From positions 1 to 20,431 of the forward strand of contig NW_021824407.1 of the NCBI RefSeq assembly GCF_006345805.1: DNA of 20,431 bases. The letters run 5' to 3'. This stretch comes from Octopus sinensis (Eukaryota). The position numbers and the translations under genes were made by a program. How positions within the stretch are numbered: the stretch's first letter is position 1; each line of letters starts with the position of its first letter. This document shows, in pieces, positions 4,392 to 20,340 of the stretch. Under the pieces are notes generated by a model. That model was not told where the DNA came from. It worked only from the letters and a program-made list of their open reading frames with translations, and ran no database searches.

Positions 4392-4427
4392 TCTCTCTCT
4401 TCTATATTATATATATATATATATATA

Positions 4428-4819
4428 CTAGCAGTATCGCCGGCGTTGCTCGGGTTTTGTAAGGGAAATAACTATATAAGCATTTTTAGAGATGTAAAGT
4501 ATAATAGCCATCTCAATATGGCTAACCACAATGGGGGGGGGTTACTGTAGCTTTTTACGTTTCTGAGATTTAATAATACATTTTTAGAGAGTTACTTCCC
4601 CTATATAATAGCAAAAAAATGCATTAAAATGGGAAAAATGATGGTAATTTTCTTTTTTAATCGTAGACTCATCGAAGACGCGCGCTAATACCCAGAAGGG
4701 TTCGATATGAATCACGACTATAAGATACCCGCTTTTGGTTACACTGCACCGCAAAATGTGGGAGTAGTTAGGAATCTAAATTGTAGGAGACAGACACACA
4801 ACTTCACTTTATATATAGA
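4428..4819 (-). mobile_element. Non-autonomous Helitron, copy 1
   Basis: Minus strand begins TC (4819-4818) and ends with hairpin CCG-agcaacgc-CGG then CTAG (4431-4428), sitting between A and T. Three more copies in the window. Confidence 0.8.
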
Positions 4820-4854: not shown

Positions 4855-4915
<61 letters not shown>

Positions 4916-4919
<4 letters not shown>

Positions 4920-5010
4920 ATCAAAACAAAGCACAAAGAGAAACACAACAACGCGAGGACGTGGAACAAATATAGTATTAGTGGACGCTCAGGAAGGAAG
5001 GGAAGAAGGA
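4916..5010 (-). mobile_element. Truncated copy of the PLE-type terminal at 17170 (stops before the hammerhead)
   Basis: gttaatc.aaacaa...caacgcgaggacgtggaacaaata.agtatta...gacgctcaggaa nearly identical to 17170-17262. Confidence 0.75.
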
Positions 5011-10212: not shown

Positions 10213-10550
10213 GGATTCTTTGTAAGCCTAGTACTTATTCTATCGGTCTCTTTTGCCGAACTGCTAAGTTACGGGGACATAAACACACCAGCATTGGTTG
10301 TCAATCGATGTTGGGGGACAAGCACAGACACACAAATATGTTCACACACATAAATACATACATATATATACGTATATACGACGGGCTTCTTTCAGTTTCC
10401 ATCTACCATCTACCAAATTGACTCACAAGGCTTTGGTCAGCCCGAGGTTATAGTAGATGACACTTGCACAAGATGCCACGCAGTGGGACTGAACCCGGAA
10501 CCACGTGGTTGGTAAGCAAGCTACTTAACACACAACCACACTTGCACCTA
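10213..10550 (-). mobile_element. tRNA-derived SINE (octopus OK/OR-type), near complete, with internal (TA/CA) tract
   Basis: Minus 5' end ataggtgcaagtgTGGTTGTGTGTTaag (A box) ... GGTTCAGTCCC (B box, 10495-10485). The 3' half is homologous to 14867-15086. Confidence 0.85.
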
Positions 10551-10648: not shown

Positions 10649-10799
10649 TGGGCACAGGACGTAACAAAACGTGTACAACAAAAAATACGAAGTACGTGTA
10701 CATAGAATATGAACTATTTTTTCGAACAACGAAAGATGCAAATAGAAAACAAGACAAAGAGCACAATAAAAAACGGCCCTTCATCAGTTGTTGGCTGTT
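10649..10799 (-). mobile_element. Truncated PLE-type terminal with CUGAUGA
   Basis: Homologous architecture to 3334-3480. TCATCAG at 10781-10787 is CUGAUGA on minus. Interrupted by the next element. Confidence 0.4.
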
Positions 10800-11050
10800 G
10801 TGGAAGGTGCAAATAAGCCATTTAAAAACATTAAAACAGATTCACTTCAACATTTAATTTATTGCATCATGGAATTTTTTCAGAGAACAGGTCGCGGTTT
10901 CAAAGCGACGAAAATATTTTGACAAATTTAATTTAAACGTTGAAGTGGATCTAACGGTTTACGTGTGTATTTAAATGGCTCGTAAACACCTTCCACTCTG
11001 CAATTGTTTTTGTTTCAGGACATTATCTCAAATCAGGTCACTTGCTTATG
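10800..11050. mobile_element. Short palindromic (MITE-like) element made of two inverted copies of the hammerhead-bearing terminal
   Basis: 10800-10861 is the imperfect reverse complement of ~10927-10997. The right arm matches 14202-14348 and the reverse complement of 11096-11294. Confidence 0.75.
10876..10926 (+). ncRNA. Hammerhead-like motif, G3-C8 family, mutated copy (GAGAACA)
   Basis: UCA-GAGAACA-G-GUCGC gguuucaaa GCGAC-GAAA-AUAU-UU-UGA. U4 is changed to A. Confidence 0.55.
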
Positions 11051-11056
11051 TCCGTA

Positions 11057-11097
<41 letters not shown>

Positions 11098-11148
11098 AGA
11101 TGTACTTGCATAGCGAGTGACTTGATCTGAGATGTTGTGCTGGAACGA

Positions 11149-11956
11149 AAACAATTGCAGCGTGGAAGGTGTTTATAAACCATTTAAGAAACACACAAAA
11201 GCCGTTAGATTCACTTCAACATTTAAATTTAATTTGTCAAAATATTTTCGTCGCTAAAATCCGCGATCTGTTCACTGACAAAACTTCGTGCTGCGTTCAT
11301 GATATATATGTACGTACGTACGTACGTACGTACGTATGTATGTATGTATGTATGTATGTATGTATGTATGTATGTATGTATGTATGTATGTATGTATGTA
11401 TGTATGTATGTATGTGTGTGTATGTATGTATGTATGTATGTATGTATGTATGTATGTATGTATGCATGTATGTATGTATATGTGTGTATGTATGTATGTA
11501 TGTATGTATACATGTATGTATGTATGTATGTATGTATGTATGTATGTATGTATGTATGTATGTGTGTATATATGTGTGTACATGTATCTGCGCATGCATG
11601 TTTACATGCCAATACGCATGTATGTAAGTACATACGTATGTATGTGTATATTTAGGAGAGTGTGTAGACGTGTCTGTGTGTGTGTACATGTGTATGTACA
11701 TGTGAACGTATGTTTATGTAATGATATGTGTCAGTTCAAGTTGTATACATGACTGTTACCTTGTTGAAGTTTGTATATATACACACATATACATTTATAT
11801 AGACACACACATACACACACATATATATGCGTTTGTCCCTCTCACCACGGTGAATGGATACAACGTCTTAGATACATATATACACATATAACCTTATACA
11901 TATATACAAGTACACACAATCATATAGACACTTACACATACACACAAATATACGTA
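11149..11956 (-). repeat. Left inverted arm (reverse complement of 13698-14348 and 15237-15880)
   Basis: Colinear reverse-complement match, including the unique segments gtcagttcaagttgtatacatgactgttaccttgttgaag and gtccctctcaccacggtgaatggatacaacgtcttag. Longer because of (TATG)n expansion. Confidence 0.93.
11233..11282 (-). ncRNA. Type I hammerhead-like motif, core GUGAACA (G3-C8)
   Basis: Minus: UUUGUCA-GUGAACA-GAUCGC ggauuuua GCGAC-GAAA-AUAU-UU-UGACAAA. Confidence 0.68.
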
Positions 11957-13245
11957 AAGGCGGTGCTATTGGAGTAAGGATAGCCGATGGTGTTGCAAAC
12001 CTCGTATGGTGAGACAGACATTTTAAACAGTGCCTAGCGACCCGTAACATCCACTTCACTATGTACTCTCGATATGTTGATGACATTAACCTTGTCGTGA
12101 AATGTAATAATAATACAGACACAGAGACAGACTCTCTACTAAATGAAGAACAGGTGATGACAGCTATACAACACATAGCTGACTCTATTCATAGCAGTAT
12201 AAAAGTTACCGTGGACTACCCCTCTAAACACACCCCAGTAATAGATACCTGTCCTAGATACTGAGCTGTGGATGGAAAATACTATGGTTAACGGAACAGT
12301 TAAACCCTGTATACTCCACTCACACTATTGTAAACCTATGGCTAATCCACTGGTAACCCGTAGTGACTCAGCGATGTCGAGTACTACCAAGCTCAACATC
12401 CTGGTGGCAGACTTCGTAGAGTAATGTGGAATGTATCTTCACTATGCCAACCACAAGAACGACAACACGCATCCAGCACTTCATATTCCGAATGCAACGT
12501 TCCGTATACACACAATATGACAGAATCAGAGTGTACAAAGGAGCGAAAACAAGATTCGAACGCATTCTAAGAGATGACGAAACGGTATATGCCCCCTATA
12601 CCGCAACAAGTTCCGAAATAGGTTAGAGAGAGACACCAACAAAAGAAATAAAACCAATACTTGATAGAAGAAATTTCACTGTGTAATGTTTGTTGACGCC
12701 ACACCTAAGAACGAATTATGTAAGGCATTCAAGAAAATCCTGCACACAACTGGCCTTAAGATCAAGGTTGTAGAAAAGACAGGTACAACTATCAAATCTG
12801 TATTATGTAGATCATATCCATTTGATAGATTCACATGTCAAAATAATTGTGCAGTATGTTCTACAAACCCACATGTGAACTGCAAAACCAAGAGCACTGT
12901 ATACCAAATTAAGTGCCAAGATGGAGCTTGCGCGACTAACCCAGAGTCATACATAGGTGAGACTTCTAGGTGTATCAATGATAGGTTCAAAGAACACCTG
13001 GACAACTACATTAAAAAGAAGCCAAACTCCATCTTCTATCAGCATGCTTTAGACTGCCACAAGGGCTCCTTAGGAGACTTAAGTTAAACATCTTTTCCAC
13101 ACATCCCACTGATGCAATGCTGAGACAGGTCACTGAAGCTGTCTGTATACAAGAATACAAACCACTCTCAACCGAAAATCCGGATGGGGTAACATCCAGA
13201 TTCCACTCGGGAGTACCATTCTATAACACCCCTCACGAGTAGTAA
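11956..13245 (+). mobile_element. Penelope-like retroelement ORF remnant (5'-truncated RT + thumb + C-terminal GIY-YIG endonuclease), pseudogenised
   Basis: KGGAIGVRIADGVANLVW*DR...MYSRYVDDINLVV (RT motifs 4/5); DYPS; IPVLDTELW; HYCKPMA; SAMS; RMQRS.Y; CPLYRNK; CQNNCAVC...NCKTKSTVYQIKCQDGAC...YIGETSRCINDRFKEH...H...H; DAMLRQVTEAVCI; LNRKSGWG. Multiple frameshifts and stops. Confidence 0.93.
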
Positions 13246-13697
13246 TCCATGCATACATGTTGAATGCATGGTACTAAAATGCATATATGCAGTTATATAT
13301 AACCGTACGAGCGTACATTGTTTGATACGTATGTACGTATGTGTTGATGTATATGTGTGCAGACGTGTGTGTATGTGTTGTGTGTGTTGTGTAATGTTAG
13401 TGTATAAGTATGTATATGCATGCACATATGAGTAGGTGTAAATATATATGAATTATATATGTATGCATGTAAAAAAATTAAAAAAAGAATAAATAGAATA
13501 AAATAAAGCAAGTTACAATTTTACCGTTGTCCTTGAAAAGAGTGTCATATACATGTATATATATATGTAAATGTATGTGTGTATGTATGTATGTTATATA
13601 TATATATATATATAATATATATGTGTATCTATGTGTGGGTATATGTATATATGTATGTAGAGATGGATGAGCGTGTATGTGTGATACTTTAAGATTA

Positions 13698-14348
13698 TAC
13701 GTATATTTGTGAGTATGTGTAAGTGTCTATATGATTGTGTGTACTTGTATATATGTATAAGGTTATATGTGCATATATTGTATCTAAGACGTTGTATCCA
13801 TTCACCGTGGTGAGAGGGACAAACGCATATATATGTGTGTGTAGTGTGTGTCTATATAAATGTATATGTGTGTATATATACAAACTTCAACAAGGTAACA
13901 GTCATGTACAACTTGAACTGACACATATCATTACATAAACATACGTTCACAAGTACATACACATGTAAACACACACAGACACGTCTACACACTCTCCTAA
14001 ATAATCATATACATACGTAAGTACATACATACATGCGTATAGGCATGCACACATGCATGCGCACATACATGTACACACACATACTACGCACATACATACA
14101 TACATACATACATACATACATACATACATACATACATACATACATACACACACACATACATACGTACATATATATCACGTACTAACTGTTACTTTCTCAG
14201 ATGCAGCACGAAGTTTTGTCAGTGAACAGATCGCGGTCTGAAAGCGACGAAAATATTTTGACAAATTAAATTTAAATGTTGAAGTGAATCGAACGGCTTT
14301 TGTGTGTTTCTTTATGACTTATAAACACCTTCCACGCTGCAATTGTTT
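13698..14348 (+). repeat. Right inverted arm ending in the hammerhead-bearing terminal
   Basis: Reverse complement of 11149-11956. Followed by (TA)n. Confidence 0.93.
14215..14265 (+). ncRNA. Type I hammerhead-like motif, core GUGAACA (G3-C8)
   Basis: Stem I UUUGUCA 14215-21 / UGACAAA 14259-65. Core 14222-28. Stem II G(A)UCGC/GCGAC. GAAA 14249-52. Palindromic stem III AAUAUU. Predicted cut after 14258. Confidence 0.7.
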
Positions 14349-14409
14349 ATATATATATACGTGTATGTGTGCATGTATATATAGAGATGCATTCATTTTT
14401 TATAATATA

Positions 14410-14790
14410 CTAGCAGTATCGCCCGGCGTTGCTCGGATTGTAAGGGAAATAACTATATAAGCATTTTTAGAGAGTTATAGCCAAAAAATAGCAAAAAAAT
14501 GCATTAGAAATGGAAAAAAAATATGGTAATTTTTTTTTAAATCGTTGACTCATCGTCGACATTTTCAGAGAGTTACTTCTTTATATAATAGCGAAAAAAT
14601 GCATTAAAATGGAAAAAATGATGGTAATTTTTTTTTTAATCGTAGACTTATCGTAGACGCGGCGCTAATACCCAGAAGGCTCGATATGAATCACGACTAT
14701 AAGATACCCACTTTTAGTTAAACTGCACCGCAAAATGTGGGAATCTAATCGTAGGAGACAGACATACAACTTGACTTTTATATATAAAGA
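14410..14790 (-). mobile_element. Non-autonomous Helitron, copy 2
   Basis: A|TC ... CCG-agcaacgc-CGG ... CTAG|T on minus. Homologous to 4428-4819, with an internal ~120 bp repeat. Confidence 0.8.
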
Positions 14791-14866
14791 TATATATAAG
14801 TATATAGATCTAAAAAAATCATATATATATATATGTGCGTGTGTAAATGTGTGTGTGTATGTGTGT

Positions 14867-15086
14867 GTATGTTTGTGTATCTGTGTTTGTCCCCCCCCCA
14901 ACCTCGCTCGACAACCGAAGCTGGTGCGTTTACGTCCCCGTAACCTAGCGGTTTGGCAAAAGAGACAGATAAAGTAAGTACTAGGCTTACAAAGAATAAG
15001 CTCTGGGGTTGACTTGCTCGACTAAAGGTTATGCTCCAGCATGGCCGCAGTTAAATGACTGAAACAAGTCAAAGAATAAAAGAATA
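14867..15086 (+). mobile_element. 3' half of the tRNA-derived SINE
   Basis: Reverse-complement homolog of 10213-10335, plus tail gctccagcatggccgcagttaaatgactgaaacaag-(aaagaata)2. Confidence 0.8.
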
Positions 15087-15745
15087 TATAAGTATATATA
15101 AGTATATTACATACATATATATATACATATATGTATATATATATATATCTATATATATATGTGTATCTATGTGTGGGTATATGTATATATGTATGTAGAG
15201 ATGGATGAGCGTGTATGTGTGTATACTTTAAGATTATACGTATATTTGTGAGTATGTGTAAGTTCTATATGATTGTGTGTACTTGTATATGTATAGGTTA
15301 TATGTGCATATATGTATCTAAGACGTTGTATCCATTCACCGTGGTGAGAGGGACAAACGCATATATATGTGTGTGTATGTGTGTGTCTATAAAATGTATA
15401 TGTGTGTATATACAAACTTCAACAAGGTAACAGTCATGTATACAACTTGAACTGACACATATCATTACATAAACATACGTTCACAAGTACATACATGTAA
15501 ACACACACAGACACGTCTACACACTCTCCTAAATAATCATATACATACGTAAGTACATACATACATGCGTATAGGCATGCACACATGCATGCGCACATAC
15601 ATGTACACACATACATACGCACATACATACATACATACATACATACATACATACATACATACATACATACATACATACACACACACATACATACGTACAT
15701 ATATATCACGTACTAACTGTTACTTTCTCAGATGCAGCACGAAGT

Positions 15746-15796
15746 TTTGTCAGTGAACAGATCGCGGTCTGAAAGCGACGAAAATATTTTGACAAA
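15746..15796 (+). ncRNA. Type I hammerhead-like motif, G3-C8 (duplicate of 14215-14265)
   Basis: Identical motif in the second tandem unit. Confidence 0.68.
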
Positions 15797-15944
15797 TTAA
15801 ATTTAAATGTTGAAGTGAATCGAACGGCTTTTGTGTGTTTCTTATATGACTTATAAACACCTTCCACGCTGCAATTGTTTATATATATATATACGTGTAT
15901 GTGTGCATGTATATATAGAGATGCATTCATTTTTTATAAATATA

Positions 15945-16331
15945 CTAGCAGTATCGCCCGGCGTTGCTCGGATTTGTAAGGGAAATAACTATATAAGCAT
16001 TTTTAGAGAGTTATAGCCAAAAAATAGCAAAAAAATGCATTAGAAATGGAAAAAAAATTATGGTAAATTTTTTTTTAAATCGTTGACTCATCGTCGACAT
16101 TTTCAGAGAGTTACTTCCTTTATATAATAGCGAAAAAATGCATTAAAATGGAAAAAATGATGGTAATTTTTTTTTTTAATCGTAGACTTATCGTAGACGC
16201 GCGCTAATACCCAGAAGGGCTCGATATGAATCACGACTATAAGATACCCACTTTTAGTTAAACTGCACACCGCAAAATGTGGAATCTAATCGTAGGAGAC
16301 AGACATACAACTTGACTTTTATATATAAAGA
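15945..16331 (-). mobile_element. Non-autonomous Helitron, copy 3 (duplicate of copy 2)
   Basis: Same termini and flanks as 14410-14790. Confidence 0.8.
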
Positions 16332-16406
16332 TATATATAAGTATATAGATCTAAAAAAATCATATTATATATATGTGCGTGTGTAAATGTGTGTGTGTAT
16401 GTGTGT

Positions 16407-16626
16407 GTATGTTTGTGTATCTGTGTTTGTCCCCCCCCCCAACCTCGCTCGAACAACCGAGCTGGTGCGTTTACGTCCCCGTACCTAGCGGTTTGGCAAA
16501 AGAGACAGATAAAGTAAGTACTAGGCTTACAAAGAATAAGCTCTGGGGTTGACTTGCTCGACTAAAGGTTATGCTCCAGCATGGCCGCAGTTAAATGACT
16601 GAAACAAGTCAAAGAATAAAAGAATA
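16407..16626 (+). mobile_element. 3' half of SINE (duplicate of 14867-15086)
   Basis: Near-identical to 14867-15086. Confidence 0.8.
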
Positions 16627-16690
16627 TATAAGTATATATAAGATATATACATACATATATATATACATATATTATATATATATATATTAT

Positions 16691-16735
<45 letters not shown>

Positions 16736-16736
16736 C

Positions 16737-17161
16737 CTAACAGTATCGCTCGGCGTTGCTCGGGTTTGTAAGGGAAATAACTATATAGCATTTTTAGAGA
16801 GTTACTTACCCTTATAGATGCCAATTCGGGCTTTCTTAGCCATTTCTGTTTTGGTGTCTTCAAGCCATGAAGTCGTTGTTCTAAAAGAACGCTGGTCTCC
16901 TGACAACGCTTTACGACGTTGATTTCCTTACACTCCCTTCCCCACAGCTTCACGAGGGAGGGAAGAAGGAGTAGAAGCAAACAGGTGCAGGTGTGACATG
17001 GACGCCAACTCCGCCGCCATCGACACACGAAATGGAATAAAAATAATGTTAAATTATTTTTAAATTCGTAGACTCATCGTAGACGCGCGCTAATACTCAG
17101 ACGGGCTGCACCGCAAAATGTGGGAGTAGTTAGGAATCTTACAGTTTTATATATATATAGA
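16737..17161 (-). mobile_element. Non-autonomous Helitron, copy 4, with a different internal segment
   Basis: Same ends (3' CTAG mutated to TTAG; cagtatcgc.cggcgttgctcggg; gcaccgcaaaatgtgggagtagttaggaatct). 16817-17050 is absent from the other copies. Confidence 0.75.
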
Positions 17162-17169
17162 TATATAAA

Positions 17170-17345
17170 GTTAATCCAAACAAGAAAACACAGAAAAAAA
17201 CACAGCAACGCGAGGACGTGGAACAAATAAAGTATTATTTGACGCTCAGGAAAGAAGGGAAGGAGGGTTTAACGTTTCGAGCGGAGCTCTTCGTCGGAAA
17301 CTAGGAGAAGGAAAGATCCCAAGGAGGGAAGACAGAGGAAAAAAA
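17170..17345 (-). mobile_element. Penelope-like terminal (pLTR-type) repeat with hammerhead
   Basis: Second copy at 4916-5010. Contains the motif at 17267-17301. Ends in TA-rich sequence. May extend to ~17620. Confidence 0.6.
17267..17301 (-). ncRNA. Minimal type I hammerhead-like motif, core CCGACGA
   Basis: Minus: GUUU-CCGACGA-A-GAGC ucc GCUC-GAAA-CG-UU-AAAC. Stem I GUUU/AAAC, palindromic stem III AACGUU, triplet GUU. Confidence 0.72.
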
Positions 17346-17744: not shown

Positions 17745-18802
17745 GTGCGTAACCTAGTGTATGTGTGCGCGTGTGTGTGTAGGGATGTATGTGTGGGTTC
17801 ATTTGTGTGAGTATGTAACGTGTATGTGTGTGCGTGTATGGGTGCGTTTGTATGTGTTTATGTGTATGAGTGCGTGCGCGGCAAGGTGTATATTGTGTAT
17901 GTATATCTGTCGGTGTGTATGTGAGTTTGTGTGTGTTTGTACGTGGGTATGTGTGTGTGCGTGTATAGTATATATATACGTAAATGTGTGTGTGTGTGCG
18001 TATGTGTGTACGTGCGTGCGAGTGAATGTATGTATATATGCGTGCGTGTGTGTACAGTATAGAGGCTTATATGTGTGTTTATATGTTTATATGTGTGTAT
18101 GAATGTATGTATGTATGTGTGTATGTGTGTAAGTGTGTGTGTGTATGTATGTGTGTATGTATGTGTATGTATGTATGTGTGCATGCGTGTATGTGTGTGT
18201 GAATGTATGTATGTATGTATATGTATGTGTGTGTATGTATCTATGTATGTATGTGTGTACGTATGTGTGTGTATGCTTGTATGTGTGTATGTGTGTATGT
18301 GTATGTATGTGTGTAAATGTATGCGTGTGTGTATGTATGTATGTGTGTATGTGAGTGTATGTGTGTATGTATGTGTGTGTATGTATGTGTGTGTGTGTGT
18401 ATGTGTGTATATGTATGTGTATGTATGTGTGTATGTATGTATGTGTGCCTGCGTGTATGTATGAATGTGTGTGTGTATGTATGTATATATATGTGCGTGT
18501 GTGTGTATGTATGTATCTATGTATGTATATATGTGTGTATGTATGTGTGTGTATGTGTGTATGTGTGTGTATGTGTATGTATGTATGTATATGTATGCGG
18601 GTGTGTATGTATGTGTGTATGTGTGTGTGTATGTGTGTATGTATGCGTGTGTGTATGTATGTATGCGTATATGTGTGTGTATGTATGTATTTATACCGGC
18701 GTGTAAGAGTGTATGTGCGTGTATGTGCGTGTATGTACGTATGTATGTATATGTATGTGTGTGTGTGTATGTATGTATGTATCTATGTATGTAGTGTATG
18801 TA

Positions 18803-18833
<31 letters not shown>

Positions 18834-20340
18834 GCATGCGTGCATGTGTGTATGTGTGTGTATGTATCTATATATATATATATGTGTGTGTATGTGTGTG
18901 TATGAGTGTATATGTGTGTGTATGTATGTGCGTATGTATGTATGTATGTATGTGTGTGTATGTATGTATGTATGTATGTATGTATGTGTGTGTATGTATG
19001 TGTGTAAGTGTGTGTGTGTGTGCATGTATGTCTGTATGTACGTGTGTGTGTATGTATGTGTGTGTATGTATGTATGTGTGCGTGCGTGTGTGTGTATGTG
19101 TGTGTGTGTGTTATGTATCTATGTATGTATGTGTGTATGTATGTGTGTATATATGTATGTATCTGTGTGTATGGATGTATGTGTGTATGTGTGTGTGTAT
19201 GTGTATGTATGTATGTATATGTATGCGTGTGTGTATGTGTATGTATGTATGTATATGTATGCGTGTGTGTATGTATGCATGTGTGTATGTGTGTAAGTAT
19301 GTATGTATGTGTGTGCATGTAAGTGTGTGTGTATGTATGTATGTACGGGTGTATGTGTGTAAGTGTGTGTGTGTAAGTGTATGTGTATGTATGTATGTAT
19401 ATGTACGCGTGTGTGTATGTATGTATGTGTGTATGTGTGTGTATGTGTGTATAGTATGGGTGTGTGTGTATGTGTGTGTGTATGTATGTGTATGTATGTG
19501 TGCATGCGTGTATGTGTGCATGTGTGTGTGTCTCTATGTATGTATGTATATAAATGTGTGTGTGTATGTATATATGTGTCTATGTATGTATGTGTGTATG
19601 TATGCGTGTGTGTGTGTATGTATGTATGTGTGTGTATGTATGTGTATGTATGTGTGTATGCATGTATGTCTGTATGTAAGTGTGTGTGTGTATGTATGTG
19701 CGTATGTATGTGTGTATGTGTGTGTGTATGTATGTGTATATATGTAATGTATGTGTGTATGTGCGTGTGTGTACGTATGTATGTATATGTATGTTTGTGT
19801 GTATGTATGTATACGTATATGTGTGTGTATGTATGTATGTATGTATGTATCTATGTATGTGTGTATGTGTGTGTGTATGTATGTTTGTATATGTATGTGT
19901 GTGTATGTGTGCATGTGCGTGTATGTGTGTATGTATGTATGTGTATGTGTGTATGTATGTGTGTGTATGTATGTTTGTATGTGTGTCTGTATGTGTGCAT
20001 GTATGTGTGTATGTATGAATGTATGTATGTATGTGTGTACGTGTGTGTGTATGTATGTGTGCATGTATGTGTGTATGTATGTATGTATGTATGTATGTAT
20101 GTGTGTGTATGTATGTGTATGTATGTATGTTATGTGCGTGCGTATGTGTGGGTATGTGTGTGTATGTATGTATATGTATGTGTGTGTATGTATGTATGTG
20201 TGTATGTATGTCTGTGTGTGAATGTATGTATGTGTGCATATGTGTATGTGTGGTGTATGTATGTGTGTATGTAATGTATGAATGTATCTATGTATGTATT
20301 ATGTGTTTTTACGTATGTATGTGTGTGTGTGAATGTATGT
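17745..20340. repeat. ~2.6 kb compound (TG)n/(TATG)n low-complexity tract
   Basis: Direct reading. Source of the long MYVC/HTYI ORFs. Confidence 0.95.

Follow-up and report, generated by a model that had tools for sequence, protein, structure and literature searches.

The 20,431-nt stretch of Octopus sinensis contig NW_021824407.1 analysed here (the window) contains a fragment of a Penelope-like element (PLE) reverse transcriptase (RT) gene between two long inverted arms, each with a hammerhead-like motif. This arrangement raises the question of whether gene fragment, arms and motifs arrived as one insertion, and whether the microsatellite-rich DNA that follows the gene belongs to the same element. 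The answer is likely that positions 11096–14348 are one decayed, 5'-truncated PLE insertion in (TA)n with an inverted copy of the 3' end upstream, an arrangement with published precedent; the earlier note had proposed this from the letters alone, and the present analysis supports it. We infer the individual steps, namely a single event, the priming sites, and the parts played by an intron and by cleavage. The insertion consists of the following parts:

11065–11095: left target flank, (TA)n (TRF, (AT)15.5)
11096–11148, minus strand: 53-nt tail at the left inverted end only, extending the frame of the ORF start, without a partner at the right end
11149–11956, minus strand: left arm, which repeats the 3' end of the element in inverted, 5'-truncated form (self-BLAST, global alignment)
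11233–11282, minus strand: minimal type I hammerhead-like motif with G3-C8, cleavage predicted after 11240
11956–13226, plus strand: 5'-truncated, broken PLE ORF (tblastn with P0002, E 1.7e-66), stop codon at 13224–13226
13227–14214, plus strand: microsatellite-rich spacer of ~990 nt, putatively 3' UTR, promoter and 5' UTR with a candidate intron; family sequence over the part compared with contigs, to 14005
13698–14348, plus strand: right arm, the element's 3' end (pLTR region) in the ORF sense (self-BLAST, global alignment)
14180–14200, plus strand: candidate 3' splice site (branch-point-like heptamer, pyrimidine tract, CAG), 21 nt before the hammerhead core and absent from the left arm
14215–14265, plus strand: minimal type I hammerhead-like motif with G3-C8, cleavage predicted after 14258
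14314–14348, plus strand: ATG and 11 codons, presumed start of the next ORF unit; same order in the related loci L003, L010 and L002
14349–14359: right target flank, short (TA)n, ~(TA)5

The arm coordinates given previously are right: 11149–11956 is the reverse complement of 13698–14348, and self-BLAST pairs the arms in two blocks (11478–11956 with 14175–13698, and 11149–11565 with 14348–13932). In the global alignment the left and right arms share 637 matches against 39 mismatches (94.2% ungapped); identity is 96.6% in the inner arm with the microsatellite excluded (342 matches, 12 mismatches) and 95.6% in the hammerhead part (130 matches, 6 mismatches). Outside the microsatellite, 18 substitutions separate the arms. 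Their lengths, 808 versus 651 bp, differ mostly by surplus TATG repeats on the left, and ~20 nt of the right arm (14180–14200) are absent on the left. The arm match terminates at 11956, the first base of ORF homology in the tblastn with P0002, so that the RT does begin exactly where the arm ends. The outer ends had both been described as abutting (TA)n. This holds on the right, at ~(TA)5; on the left the mirrored arm halts at 11149 and only the 53-nt tail reaches (TA)n. No clear target-site duplication was seen around 11096–14348, both ends lying within (TA)n.

Both arms end in open codons. On the minus strand, an ATG at 11183 begins 29 codons that stay open as far as (TA)n, and on the right the ATG at 14314 lies 49 nt past the hammerhead motif; these codons are likely the start of the ORF. 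Inverted 5' copies, tails and (TA)n targeting belong to the described PLE layout (PMC8557442), and a published pLTR encodes 12 aa, or 22 with its tail (PMC3846280). The locus has the inverted 5'-truncated copy and one-sided tail of EN+ PLEs, together with a pLTR that carries a hammerhead and an ORF start, the resemblance of the encoded peptides being weak. Terminal peptides of the window are similar to the start of P0051, at shuffle p 0.003 for a neighbouring copy and 0.0095 for the left arm; eight N-termini were tried in this test, and other windows gave the left-arm peptide a higher score. BLASTP of the window's terminal peptides returned no matches, a tblastn with homolog N-termini as queries yielded nothing beyond noise in the window, and a search for further relatives of the P0051 N-terminus recovered P0051 alone.

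The ORF is a remnant from RT motif B' onward, with YVDD, thumb, a CxxxCxxC linker and a GIY-YIG domain with CCHH residues, the Cys/His positions being assigned by comparison with Fig. S2 of PMC8557442. It spans profile positions 296–713 of 735 in a 38-protein family alignment; complete relatives are 870–1050 aa long, and several hundred N-terminal residues are lost. Pfam matches the GIY-YIG domain at E 3.7e-4 and 21.2 bits, against a curated cut-off of 22.6. Stops at 12010 and 12662–12667 and frameshifts near 12245, 12416, 12579, 13072 and 13163 interrupt the frame, and part of these lesions may be assembly errors. A GIY-YIG domain with CCHH within the RT ORF is as in EN+ PLEs, and so is kinship of the RT with telomerase, seen in motif B' and YVDD in the window and in low-TM fold matches of a relative: for a model of P0018 (pLDDT 87), the top three fold matches are telomerase chains (E 3e-7 to 7e-7, TM ~0.3). 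Searched by sequence, the PDB yielded two weak matches, both to bacterial RTs.

As the earlier note described, each arm carries a hammerhead motif, the right one in the ORF sense, and the two share GAUCGC against GGUCGC near 10890. The core in both is GUGAACA plus GAUCGC. A descriptor scan that allowed C-G, G-C or U-A at positions 3-8 returned three sites in the window, at 14215, 15746 and 11233 (minus strand), all of them G3-C8, compared with 0.1 matches per shuffled window. The stems comprise 7 bp (I), 4 bp with an additional A-C mismatch or bulge (II) and a short palindrome (III), the last implying cleavage as a dimer (cf. PMC4209133). The type I core is present (paired 3-8, GAAA, NUH, stems I and II), with 39 of 42 cells paired versus 31–50% in slid controls. 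The G10.1-C11.1 pair that follows the extra nucleotide in minimal type I hammerheads is lacking in the arms: both have A-C at this position and the neighbouring copy has G-C, and a bulged-A register restores G-C. That neighbouring copy, with GGUCGC near 10885–10890, shows a U4A change and keeps G10.1.

Other searches with these motifs were negative. No covariation occurs among the three distinct window copies, a hammerhead family is absent among the 150 of 173 Rfam window matches listed, and the MFE folds of four motifs are no stabler than shuffles (z 0.0 to -0.55). A covariance model, R1, built from 13 relatives scores the four window copies at only E 0.69–2.3, under three chance matches, and the exact 23-nt hammerhead end has no matches among metagenome contigs. 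Double swaps at 3-8 partly restore activity in vitro (PMC11167929, PMC8495972), and U3-A8 occurs naturally (PMC3088659, PMC4209133). For the G3-C8 motif the prediction is weak cleavage, confined to dimers, and the A at stem II position 10.1, common to both arms, may weaken cleavage further. A natural G3-C8 hammerhead was not found among the papers listed in literature searches; Lunse et al. 2017 may already report such variants.

Support for joining the hammerhead terminal to the ORF comes from relatives, not from other copies of this exact family. Among 77 related loci, some of them near-duplicates, 30 reach the ORF end and 26 of these have at least 150 nt downstream (four were dropped). Thirteen of the 26 contain a minimal hammerhead 100–392 nt past the ORF end (0.08 per shuffled set) by a descriptor relaxed after motifs had been seen by eye; a stricter scan finds eight of 26. 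Positions 3-8 are paired in all 13, as C-G in eight, U-A in three, A-U in two and G3-C8 in none, and stem II covaries across the set. In 20 of the 77 related loci, Rfam gave no match at gathering score. One locus (L003) is a head-to-tail unit of stop, hammerhead, ATG and ORF; the termini of two others (L010, L002) run from a hammerhead-like motif through an ATG and ~7 codons into (TA)n; and a fourth (L039) has a hammerhead-bearing inverted copy upstream of its ORF.

The spacer was followed by contig coverage of 11900–14005 only, in four of 24 listed sequencing runs, one per organism label. Relative to the ORF median, the median summed depth in all four runs is 0.54–1.09x in four post-ORF bins and 0.98–1.72x in four arm bins, with three simple-repeat bins and the bin spanning the ORF end omitted; listed single contigs have mostly depth 4–54 and bins total hundreds or thousands, and summed depth does not equal copy number. 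Since spacer and inner arm lie at family depth, they are not single-locus sequence. Other copies with a different terminal and a single-locus 13698–14200, which had been named as signs of a mere local inverted duplication, are not what is found: spacer and inner arm are multi-copy, and ORF relatives carry hammerheads at the same position. Contigs at least 99% alike make up 9–14% in three runs and 5% in one, most being below 95%, and 22–37 variant contigs cover 13952. The contigs contradict indels at 13778 and 13906 in the right arm.

These data also bear on a reading in two events, by which the arm would belong to a numerous non-autonomous derivative of PLEs, made of spacer and pLTR, that was inserted, or inverted and duplicated, beside a truncated ORF. 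Depth in the arm bins matches or exceeds that of the ORF bins (0.98–1.72x), coverage is thin at 13235–13239 (depth 7, 60, 0 and 31, about one contig), and independent pLTR pieces cluster locally (10774–10860, 10864–11060), all of which would fit two events. Among the contigs listed for 11900–14005 in the four runs, none bridges ORF and arm. The ORF is ~12% off a deep family contig and the arms are ~4% apart, a difference that needs an explanation by subfamily or homogenisation. However, the arm/ORF junction is exact, the arms are far closer to each other than to the neighbouring copy, the order stop, hammerhead, ATG and (TA)n repeats in relatives, and a single-end tail fits the published pattern. 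Two events are therefore an unlikely explanation, and a single insertion is preferred.

Less probable still is a spacer of host origin, captured in this one copy between ORF and pLTR as described for Pen1_Av of Adineta vaga. Precedent exists in unique spacers of 0.9–1.5 kb (PMC3846280), and the spacer resembles the window's microsatellite-rich host DNA and far exceeds the 99–391 nt of the 13 relatives, but its non-repeat bins stand at family depth on many contigs in four of four runs. It is conceivable that a founder captured the spacer and that the family was then amplified. Of the two origins that the earlier note had offered, single-locus host DNA does not hold, with multi-copy sequence in all four runs, and a long 3' UTR survives as one part of the putative content. 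On the preferred reading, in which the spacer belongs to the family, whether it holds a retained 5'-UTR intron is about evenly balanced. Penelope has an intron that ends at stem I (PMC4209133). The splice motif at 14180–14200 occurs twice window-wide versus 4.0 expected, not above chance; of the relatives scanned, L012 and L050 have the longest spacers, and both show donor-like sites and an acceptor, which lies 11 and 25 nt upstream of the core; and in the window several GT candidates leave the donor unfixed.

Two further features lie beside the insertion:

10864–11060, plus strand: neighbouring solo pLTR with tail, of a related subfamily, outside this insertion (85.5–87.5% to the arms)
15084–16733, plus strand: tandem duplicate of 13547–15194 with a third arm copy (95.9%; no substitutions and 30 indels of 1–2 nt over 1464 bp)

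The first explains a palindrome of 430 bp (10864–11294) that had been taken as the element's pLTR. That the hammerhead terminal is the element's pLTR is supported; that the whole palindrome is the pLTR is not, its left half (10864–11060) being a separate insertion. The halves are 85.5–87.5% alike, which indicates two insertions at one (TA)n, and a single MITE-like unit was rejected on this similarity against 95.6% between the arms. Pairs on opposite strands have already been described (PMC4209133), and a further independent pLTR piece lies nearby at 10774–10860.

In the tandem duplicate, the lack of substitutions together with 30 small indels points to a false duplication from noisy long reads, and judged from these letters it is probably an assembly artefact. 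The third arm copy at 15237–15880 inside it had been overlooked. A true retrozyme-like tandem was considered for this third arm and rejected, since the arm sits in the probable false duplicate. In non-LTR retrozymes, short units follow one another in tandem, at least two in a row; every unit bears a hammerhead, and there is no ORF (bioRxiv 10.64898/2026.07.22.740005); here an ORF is present, and the sole second motif on the same strand falls within the probable false duplicate. An assembly fold-back as the origin of the inverted arms themselves is highly improbable: the adjacent tandem duplicate appears artefactual and the sequencing runs contain at most 0.32 of the stretch's words, none half, but a fold-back read predicts indels only and the arms differ by 18 substitutions, a 20-nt segment and the 53-nt tail.

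A single insertion could have proceeded as follows. The family unit would be a head-to-tail transcript of ORF, spacer, hammerhead and next ATG, with the promoter and a retained 5'-UTR intron, enlarged by microsatellites, within the spacer. A nick in (TA)n would be made by the element's own GIY-YIG nuclease, and the RT would start a few codons into the next ORF start, at one of two sites ~53 nt apart, which would leave one end with 11 codons and the other with 29, the tail. Two internal RT starts have been given as the explanation of such tails (PMC11167929). One cDNA, the first, would extend back to RT motif B' (11956) and the second would halt at 13698, followed by head-to-head joining.

In itself the insertion illustrates a known pattern cleanly. 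Its hammerhead could be of wider use: a natural G3-C8 in an amplified family, with C-G, U-A and A-U relatives, is a ready series for testing selection on PLE ribozyme cleavage, which was found dispensable for insertion in vitro (PMC11167929). A lineage with a C-terminal nuclease and a telomerase-sized fingers insertion, if true, bears on the kinship of PLE and telomerase RTs. Duplex folds of the arms pair 342 of 357 bases in one part and 132 of ~142 in another, and long inverted arms, if present in many copies, could be a source of dsRNA; that read-through dsRNA forms here and is acted on by ADAR or small-RNA pathways is a guess. The runs listed as sharing words with the stretch include no RNA, which carries no information on expression.

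Among known PLE groups, Nematis is one of the closest comparisons. The locus shares with it the C-terminal GIY-YIG with CCHH and the short CX2-5CxxC linker before it (the next Cys is 7 aa away both in the window and in 97 of the 147 homologs that show the pattern), a likeness drawn from nuclease and linker motifs. The relatives differ in a TDKS-type motif and in an RT3-RT4 distance of 130–135 aa, versus 63 in C. remanei Nematis and 118 in human TERT (hand count, Fig. S1, PMC8557442). This distance holds in all 54 measurable homologs (of 253 proteins) in 17 of 17 locus measurements, and in all 11 that allow the measurement out of the 25 proteins most similar to the window ORF, in a sampling whose motif pattern favours this lineage; the window copy is without the RT3-RT4 region, so the result rests on relatives. 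Canonical PLEs are described as having no RT3-RT4 insertion (PMC8557442), and all measured relatives depart in this from Nematis, Neptune and Penelope-Poseidon. Neptune was further rejected for its long linker (~25 aa) after CxxC, against 7 aa in the window; Naiad and Chlamys for an N-terminal nuclease, which here follows the RT; and Hydra for its CCHH-less, CxCX5C linker type, with CCHH residues and CxxC present here. No paper on a clade combining a 130-aa RT3-RT4 with a C-terminal nuclease came up among those listed in literature searches, apart from the ones cited here.

Pen2/Pen2a_Av (PMC3846280; PMC8557442, Fig. 2) is similar in its 5'-truncated RT/GIY-YIG ORF with an inverted 3'-end copy at the 5' junction, first codons in the pLTR, a one-end tail and an unclear TSD; it differs in arms of ~200 bp, not 651–808 bp, and a tail of 30–40 nt, not 53; the family-wide ~1 kb spacer is a further difference here. 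With metazoan PLE minimal type I hammerheads (PMC4209133) the motif shares the extra nucleotide between 9 and 10.1, the palindromic stem III and the position in the pLTR; it has G3-C8 in place of C3-G8 or U3-A8, an A10.1-C11.1 mismatch (or bulged A), and U17. The 5'-UTR introns of Drosophila virilis Penelope and Chlamys-3_cRei (PMC8557442, PMC4209133) likewise have their acceptor right before stem I, where the candidate acceptor lies here, and are kept in the genomic copy; here the acceptor is predicted, the donor is unfixed and microsatellites would lie inside. Tentatively, and with considerable doubt, these traits might mark an undescribed PLE lineage with a C-terminal GIY-YIG, an RT fingers insertion of 130–135 aa (human telomerase 118), all four Watson-Crick pairs at 3-8, and a family that multiplied here with G3-C8 as its natural core and kept a 5'-UTR intron filled with microsatellites. 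The architecture is ordinary and the lineage is a variant, set apart by its G3-C8 core, by a 1-kb spacer found across the family and, in its relatives, by the long RT insertion.

To the left of the probable Penelope-like element (PLE) insertion at 11096–14348 lie two pieces of pLTR, the PLE terminal region that holds the hammerhead and the start of the ORF, and these are arranged head to head. In the copy at 10864–11060, the frame from the ATG at 10975 stays open up to (CA)(TA)n. Both pieces are described below, together with hammerhead-like motifs elsewhere in the window and in related loci (L-numbers).

Window 10774–10860, minus strand: inverted fragment of another pLTR variant, carrying its own short ATG frame
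Window 10864–11060, plus strand: solo pLTR of a sister subfamily with a tail (one-sided extension beyond the pLTR); G3-C8 core, U4A change, G10.1 intact
Window 17257–17309, minus strand: motif resembling a hammerhead; C3-G8 core, U4C change
L012 2798–2850: A3-U8-core hammerhead
L024 1500–1551: A3-U8-core hammerhead
L050 1698–1751: A3-U8-core hammerhead

The 17257–17309 motif is perhaps a member of another PLE-derived family. It adjoins a repeat that recurs at 4894–5009.

Self-comparison of the window reveals a tandem repeat of 13547–15194 and 15084–16733 that differs by no substitutions and by 30 indels of 1–2 nt; this is probably a false duplication originating from noisy long reads. The window also contains an AT-rich dispersed family (14407–14790, 4403–4800 and 16725–17140; 80–90% alike) whose copies begin after TA runs, an inverted pair of short repeats (10215–10378 and 14832–14997; 81.5% alike) that may be SINE-like, and a degenerate 2.3-kb TATG array at 18070–20340.

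Across window 11900–14005, A>G places outnumber T>C places in the contigs of all four sequencing runs, each with a different organism label (51/27, 43/24, 47/28 and 44/27, all counted against one common reference). RNA editing is not adopted as a reading of this excess, because the strand is A-rich (736 A versus 591 T) and the reference is common to the runs.

Among the relatives, the L050 spacer is rich in CA/TATG and has splice-like signals. L001 1–6055 has an open frame of 1632 aa, tandem repeats of 105 bp and direct terminal repeats of 936 bp. In the homologous protein P0018 and 53 further homologs, which belong to a PLE lineage with a C-terminal nuclease, 130–135 aa separate the RT motifs RT3 and RT4.
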